Source: Escherichia phage vB_EcoM-813R1
Sequence record: ON470617.2
Direction: 5' to 3' (one strand)
Length of the DNA: 64,000 bases
Below the pieces are notes generated by a model that was not told where the DNA came from, searched no databases, and worked only from the letters and a program-made list of their open reading frames with translations. The translations under genes and the position numbers were made by a program. Shown here piece after piece: positions 61,439-61,455 of the stretch; the stretch's first letter is position 1, and each line of letters opens with the position of its first letter.

Positions 61439-61455
61439 AAATTTATTAGAGCAAT
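61439..61455 (-). promoter_or_regulatory. C1 operator, perfect 17/17 match (aaatttattagagcaat), upstream of the minus-strand tRNA/repeat cluster
   Basis: Exact reverse complement of ATTGCTCTAATAAATTT, immediately 3' of the dmt stop. Confidence 0.65.

Follow-up and report, generated by a model that had tools for sequence, protein, structure and literature searches.

The 2 kb around the site that concerns us are 99.2-99.5% identical to Escherichia phage P1 and its close relatives such as JL22 and RCS47, and P7 and SJ46 reach 96-97%; the identity of about 99% to P1 marks the window (the whole 64-kb stretch of DNA that we analyzed) as a P1-like phage-plasmid of E. coli. The exact local variant is common among the P1-like plasmids of this species: PLSDB contains 167 records in which 80% or more of positions 58400-61500 is covered. 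In this region the P1 reference is oriented as the reverse complement of the plus strand of the window. The P1 annotation (AF234172) was carried onto the window with an offset of +57021, which places 4418-4434 of the P1 locus segment at 61439-61455.

The tRNAs, ban, and the ORFs between them all lie on the minus strand (Table 1), and the order tRNA-Asn, tRNA-Thr, tRNA-Ile(CAT), ban is identical in P1 (AF234172, NC_005856), P7 (AF503408) and the window. The only difference from the P1 operator locus is in the downstream cargo, where the window has one extra hairpin unit and where tciABC is replaced. The ban gene lies 3.2 kb downstream of the operator described below, in a region with 99.4% DNA identity to P1. 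The pair formed by tRNA-Asn and tRNA-Thr begins 665 bp downstream of 61439-61455 in the minus-strand direction. The coordinates thus agree with the original prediction, which had placed a C1 operator upstream of these two tRNAs and of the hairpin array on the minus strand.

Table 1. Features of the operator locus and its trans-acting genes (positions in the window unless stated otherwise).
Feature	Position	Strand	Evidence or remark
c1, repressor gene acting in trans	31130..31976	+	full-length tblastn match with P1 C1
lxc (bof), co-repressor gene	21624..21868	+	tblastn with P1 Lxc; match split over two reading frames
dmt (DNA methyltransferase)	61446..63710	-	two 1-nt homopolymer deletions relative to P1
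Promoter P2ban (predicted)	61440..61471	-	-35 ATGACG 61471-61466, -10 TAAATT 61445-61440; AF234172 'predicted sigma 70 promoter P2ban'
Op72ab / Obanab, bivalent operator	61428..61455	.	28/28 identical to P1, P7, JL22, SJ46
Op72a / Obana, monovalent C1 operator	61439..61455	-	17/17; corresponds to AF234172 protein_bind 'Obana, former Op72a'
Op72b / Obanb, C1 operator	61428..61444	+	15/17; AF234172 'Obanb, former Op72b'; P7 Op(ban[b])
Promoter P1ban	61426..61454	-	-35 TTGCTC 61454-61449, 17-nt spacer, -10 TAATAT 61431-61426; AF234172 'sigma 70 promoter P1ban'
Leader segment, 'dicF-like region' of the P1 annotation	61289..61383	-	~78% identity to the Qin ydfC-dicB intergenic stretch
Intrinsic-terminator-like hairpin	61239..61265	-	GCCCAUC-UUCG-GGUGGGC, then G + U7; hairpin 61265-61246
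Long hairpin module U0, same family as the array	60972..61058	-	z = -5.0; upstream of tRNA-Asn
tRNA-Asn (GTT)	60699..60774	-	74.5 bits
tRNA-Thr (TGT)	60621..60696	-	72.9 bits
Array of four long hairpin modules U1-U4 with spacers	59838..60620	-	z from -3.0 to -5.0
STnc100 match, sub-threshold	59726..59846	-	37.8 bits (gathering score 47), E = 7e-6; directly precedes the 70-aa ORF
70-aa ORF	59480..59692	-	no Pfam match; with the SPFH ORF replaces tciABC of P1
275-aa SPFH/Band 7 ORF	58649..59476	-	Pfam PF01145, E = 9.7e-31; SPFH annotation in many P1-like plasmids
tRNA with CAT anticodon (trnI of P1, annotated tRNA-Ile2)	58546..58621	-	tRNA search, P1 annotation
ban, DnaB-type replicative helicase, annotated target of Op72ab	56896..58260	-	Pfam DnaB_C, E = 5e-108, and DnaB N-terminal domain
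tRNA-Ser (UGA)	P7 segment 1988-2074; D6 segment 3548-3634	-	ARAGORN; unannotated in the P7 record

The asymmetric 17-bp C1 operator consensus ATTGCTCTAATAAATTT corresponds to the published form, and P1 contains 22 such operators, 17-mers dispersed over the genome (PMC8546580). A search with this consensus confirmed that the minus-strand site at 61439-61455, with 0 mismatches, is the sole 17/17 match within the window, as the original prediction had it. Thirteen sites in the window have at most three mismatches, as against a mean of 0.38 in 100 dinucleotide shuffles (largest 3; 0/100 reach 13), so the operator family stands far above chance. The description of the site as a single operator did not hold. 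It is half of a bivalent one: an inverted second site, ATTACACTAATAAATTT, matches the consensus at 15 of 17 positions on the opposite strand and shares 6 bp with the first, and the two together form a 28-bp near-palindrome, ATTACACTAATAAATTTATTAGAGCAAT, with AAATTT at its centre.

The same 28 bp carry in AF234172 the note 'divalent C1-controlled operator Obanab; corresponds to former Op72ab; controls expression of ban'. The P7 record labels the halves Op(ban[a]) and Op(ban[b]), and its note opens 'controls expression of trnRNA, ...'. The annotated main target is ban, which the original prediction missed when it named the tRNA and repeat cluster. While the 28 bp do not differ between the window, P1, P7, JL22 and SJ46, the adjoining upstream dmt codons vary at several positions. 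The outer 11-mers of both half-sites are unchanged in eight relatives whose surrounding identity goes down to 92%; in two IncY plasmids the centre of the operator is altered, to AAATAT and AGATAT. In the alignment of relatives, 35 of the 38 columns after the operator are invariant, and the three variable ones lie 2 to 6 nt past it. Relative to the P1-type locus, the window has one substitution 3 nt upstream of Op72ab.

The locus thus combines the inverted 17-mers, 6-bp overlap, 28-bp length, identity to P1 and position at the 3' end of dmt that characterize the bivalent Op72ab, and it has the consensus match, the cognate c1 on the same replicon and the promoter overlap of a P1 C1 operator. We conclude that 61439-61455 is very probably Op72a, one half of the C1 operator Op72ab of a P1-like ban operon. 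Op72ab is already known and is annotated in GenBank for both P1 and P7, and no new repressor control follows from finding it here. The protein_bind annotation of the identical P1 and P7 sequence suggests that C1 binds the 28 bp; C1 binding, promoter activity and the control of ban were reportedly described by the Schuster laboratory in 1987-1992. Reading the sequence without other help had nevertheless recovered a genuine, though textbook, regulatory site. The practical gain of the analysis lies in the corrections, namely that the operator is bivalent, that ban is its target, that a terminator precedes the tRNAs, and that plp and upl are antisense.

The other bivalent C1 operator of P1, Oc1ab (Op99ab) at the c1 promoter, also consists of two overlapping inverted 17-bp sites that span 28 bp and cover a promoter. 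Oc1ab differs from Op72ab in its target, which is c1 itself (autoregulation), and in its poorer half-sites, AATGCACTAATAAATCT having three mismatches; its counterpart in the window lies near 31019-31035. The operators OL/PL and OR/PR of lambda resemble Op72ab in that repressor sites overlap an early promoter, so that prophage repression works by promoter occlusion. Unlike the P1 C1 sites, the lambda operators are tandem symmetric sites for a dimer, and the repressors are unrelated. No P1-type C1 site with at most three mismatches was found in the 8.7-kb tRNA locus of phage D6, whose operator sequence may differ.

The proteins that would act on the operator are encoded in the window. Besides c1 and lxc, coi is present at 30810-31016. 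The P1 annotation assigns a modulating role to Lxc (formerly Bof), which 'enhances binding of C1 to all its operators', and C1, Lxc and operator DNA form a ternary complex (PMC8546580). Relative to P1, c1 has 1-nt deletions at 31194 and 31859, and dmt at 62979 and 63529. All four fall into runs of 6-7 identical bases, which suggests homopolymer error in the assembly; the frameshifts in c1 and dmt are thus probably sequencing errors and not true pseudogenes. If the deletions in c1 were real, the repressor would be defective.

The -35 element of P1ban lies within Op72a and its -10 element overlaps Op72b; the predicted promoter P2ban overlaps the operator too. Judging from the spacing of P1ban, transcription would begin on the minus strand near 61419. 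The promoter expected at the site by the original prediction was recovered in part. A relaxed scan returned P1ban (TTGCTC-17-TAATAT, 7/12) as the sole minus-strand candidate at the site, in agreement with the annotation, whereas a strict sigma-70 scan of 60400-62000 returned no promoter on either strand. The strict scan misses P1ban because its hexamers match the consensus at only 7 of 12 positions, and in-silico promoter prediction therefore neither confirms nor refutes it. The operator also overlaps another gene: dmt shares the orientation of the operon, and after its final codons (…GVLL*) the stop TAA, at 61448-61446, lies inside Op72a. The dmt operon has a C1 operator of its own, Op68/Odmt, annotated upstream of uhr-hrdC-dmt in P1; by offset it would lie at ~64961-64977, past the end of the window and ~3.5 kb upstream of Op72ab.

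Three other views of the site can be weighed against this background. A chance match or a functionless relic would fit the AT-rich composition of the site and nothing else that we found. An exact 17-mer, where 0.38 sites are expected even when three mismatches are allowed, the paired inverted site in the exact geometry of Op72ab, and an operator sequence kept among relatives with differing flanks make this barely conceivable, and a chance match was dropped on the shuffle statistics, the geometry and the conservation. It is very improbable, too, that the operator governs a plus-strand transcript into dmt, antisense or convergent to that gene, and not the minus-strand operon. The near-palindromic, AT-rich operator and weak overlapping plus-strand hexamer pairs (7/12 in the relaxed scan) would be compatible with such a transcript; however, the strict scan gives no plus-strand promoter, the P1 and P7 records contain none but do enter P1ban, on the minus strand, as a sigma-70 promoter without the word 'predicted', and no plus-strand gene begins nearby. 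The dmt-convergent transcript that the original prediction had kept as its alternative was rejected accordingly, since dmt and the operon share their direction, no annotation speaks for it, and the hexamer pairs reach only 7/12. C1 bound at Op72ab might, besides occluding P1ban, act as a roadblock to read-out from dmt or loop to Op68. C1-mediated looping has been reported from the c1 region, the dmt stop codon lies within the operator, and Op68/Odmt is annotated upstream of uhr-hrdC-dmt. However, the annotation already gives Pdmt a C1 operator, Odmt, which may leave little for a roadblock to add, and we regard such an additional role as improbable.

Between the promoter and the tRNAs lies the strongest intrinsic-terminator-like hairpin in 5.5 kb, with a 7-bp stem, a UUCG loop and a U7 run, ~180 nt past the probable start of transcription. 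Its stem is invariant in five relatives, in which the T-run varies from 6 to 8. The leader that precedes it contains an inner hairpin with compensatory changes, CUGGG…CCCAG in the P1 type versus GGGG…CCCC in the P7 type. The counterpart of this leader in the Qin prophage lies just upstream of dicF and is found in 4263 of 5426 complete E. coli genomes. The DicF covariance model (Rfam RF00039) found no match at E<=1 in positions 58000-62000 of the window, while the Qin copy scores 76.7 bits. The label 'dicF-like region' in the P1 annotation thus lacks support from the DicF model; the homology is with the region upstream of dicF only.

The Qin dicF locus (ydfC-dicF-dicB) and the window are nonetheless alike in more than the ~95-nt leader, which is ~78% identical. 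Both have a sub-threshold STnc100 match downstream, which in Qin covers the dicF-dicB interval (34.4 bits; Qin segment 2671-2880). Because this match recurs in Qin, the leader of the ban operon resembles the dicF-dicB intergenic region with inserted tRNAs and hairpins. The window differs from Qin in that DicF is replaced by another terminator hairpin, followed by the tRNAs and the hairpin modules, and in that control lies with P1 C1 at the window locus and with DicA/DicC in Qin. The less explored part of this locus is the leader related to the dicF region, together with the hairpin modules that surround the variable tRNAs; it may bear on what is switched on first after loss of C1.

The DNA itself shows the identity to P1, the site geometry, the overlaps with promoter and dmt stop, the conservation, the order of the genes, and that c1 and lxc are present, and the annotation of the identical sequence suggests that P1ban is active and that C1 and Lxc control ban at Op72ab. 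In the prophage, C1, aided by Lxc/Bof, would sit on both half-sites and keep RNA polymerase off P1ban. Upon inactivation of C1, minus-strand transcription would proceed leftward from near 61419 through the structured leader, the intrinsic terminator, tRNA-Asn, tRNA-Thr, the hairpin modules, the two ORFs, tRNA-Ile(CAT) and ban, and read-through of the terminator would carry it to the tRNAs and ban. The weakness of P1ban (7/12), the terminator-like hairpin ~180 nt downstream, and the frameshifts in c1, lxc and dmt count against this reading. The original prediction had the tRNAs and structured repeats under direct repressor control. They do lie downstream of a promoter with a C1 operator, and the P7 note names trnRNA; however, the strong terminator between P1ban and the tRNAs means that 'direct' needs to be qualified. 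P1ban itself would be under direct C1 control, and expression of the tRNAs from it would depend on read-through. A candidate for a different route to the tRNAs is the P7 'predicted late promoter LPdam2' within dam, of which the window copy has two substitutions in the 19-nt core.

The terminator lends weight to the possibility that the operator mainly gates a leader RNA of ~180 nt (from ~61419 to ~61239), in the position that DicF holds in Qin, with the tRNAs and ban receiving minority read-through or other inputs such as read-through from dmt. The 7-bp stem, UUCG loop and U7 of the terminator, the invariance of its stem in relatives, the homology of the leader to the stretch upstream of dicF, and the compensatory inner hairpin all speak for such a short RNA. 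As to other inputs, dmt ends within the operator and no terminator comes before, so transcripts from upstream could enter the operon. However, the annotators of P1 and P7 assign ban and the tRNAs to Op72ab, the interval between terminator and tRNAs has no other annotated or strict-scan promoter, and DicF itself is absent. We therefore consider a short leader RNA as the main product rather unlikely; it refines the explanation as a ban operon and is compatible with it. Possible, if doubtful, is the broader proposal that P1ban mainly drives a package of structured noncoding RNA that consists of the ~180-nt leader, perhaps a phage sRNA released on induction, and of long hairpins that flank variable tRNA cassettes and are shared with lambdoid early-left leaders. 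In that case plp and upl would not be real genes.

The five hairpin modules U0-U4 flank the tRNAs, their typical stems being ACAACAGGTAAGGG… pairing with …CCCTTACCGTTGTG. No Rfam family matches the modules, and three tRNAs alone scored above threshold in the Rfam search of 58000-62000. Each module folds well below its own shuffles (z -3.0 to -5.0); in one of them the stem differs in sequence yet remains 91% complementary over 23 nt. RNAalifold on the paralogues gave 6 pairs only, from a poor alignment in which the inner loops differ and two sequences are badly bounded. Copy number varies between P1, P7, JL22, D6 and the window; P1 (AF234172) lacks the unit at 60355-60527 of the window.

According to ARAGORN, the hairpin array holds a fourth tRNA (Ser, UGA, 87 nt) in P7 and D6, which P1 and the window lack. 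The array thus looks like a variable tRNA cassette region. A 143-bp stretch from the end of U1 to the start of U2 (60402-60544) is ~98% identical to many lambdoid and Stx phages, among them mEp460, IME207 and Stx2 phages, and the mEp460 copy sits directly to the left of the prophage repressor gene, which suggests an exchange of RNA modules between the early operons of P1-like and lambdoid phages. The hairpin modules may serve as RNase III-type processing sites or as joints at which tRNA cassettes are exchanged.

The original prediction had counted upl and plp among the downstream set. In the P1 annotation both run antisense to the hairpin array, on the other strand, and have predicted promoters of their own; the P1ban transcript is therefore antisense to them. 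They may not be genes. The length of the plp/upl ORFs (59747-60496, plus strand) shifts with the gain and loss of hairpin units, with 125 aa in P1, 110 aa in JL22 and 139 aa here, and the two are uncalled in most PGAP-annotated P1-like plasmids. A CRISPRi knock-down study of P1 scored trnT, plp, upl, tciABC, trnI and ban all as non-essential (PMC10695390). For P1vir in an hfq mutant, changed transcription of trnA, trnI, tciA-C and ban is reported in a preprint that does not deal with C1 control. The variant with the 70-aa ORF and the SPFH gene in place of tciA, tciB and tciC is common among P1-like plasmids.
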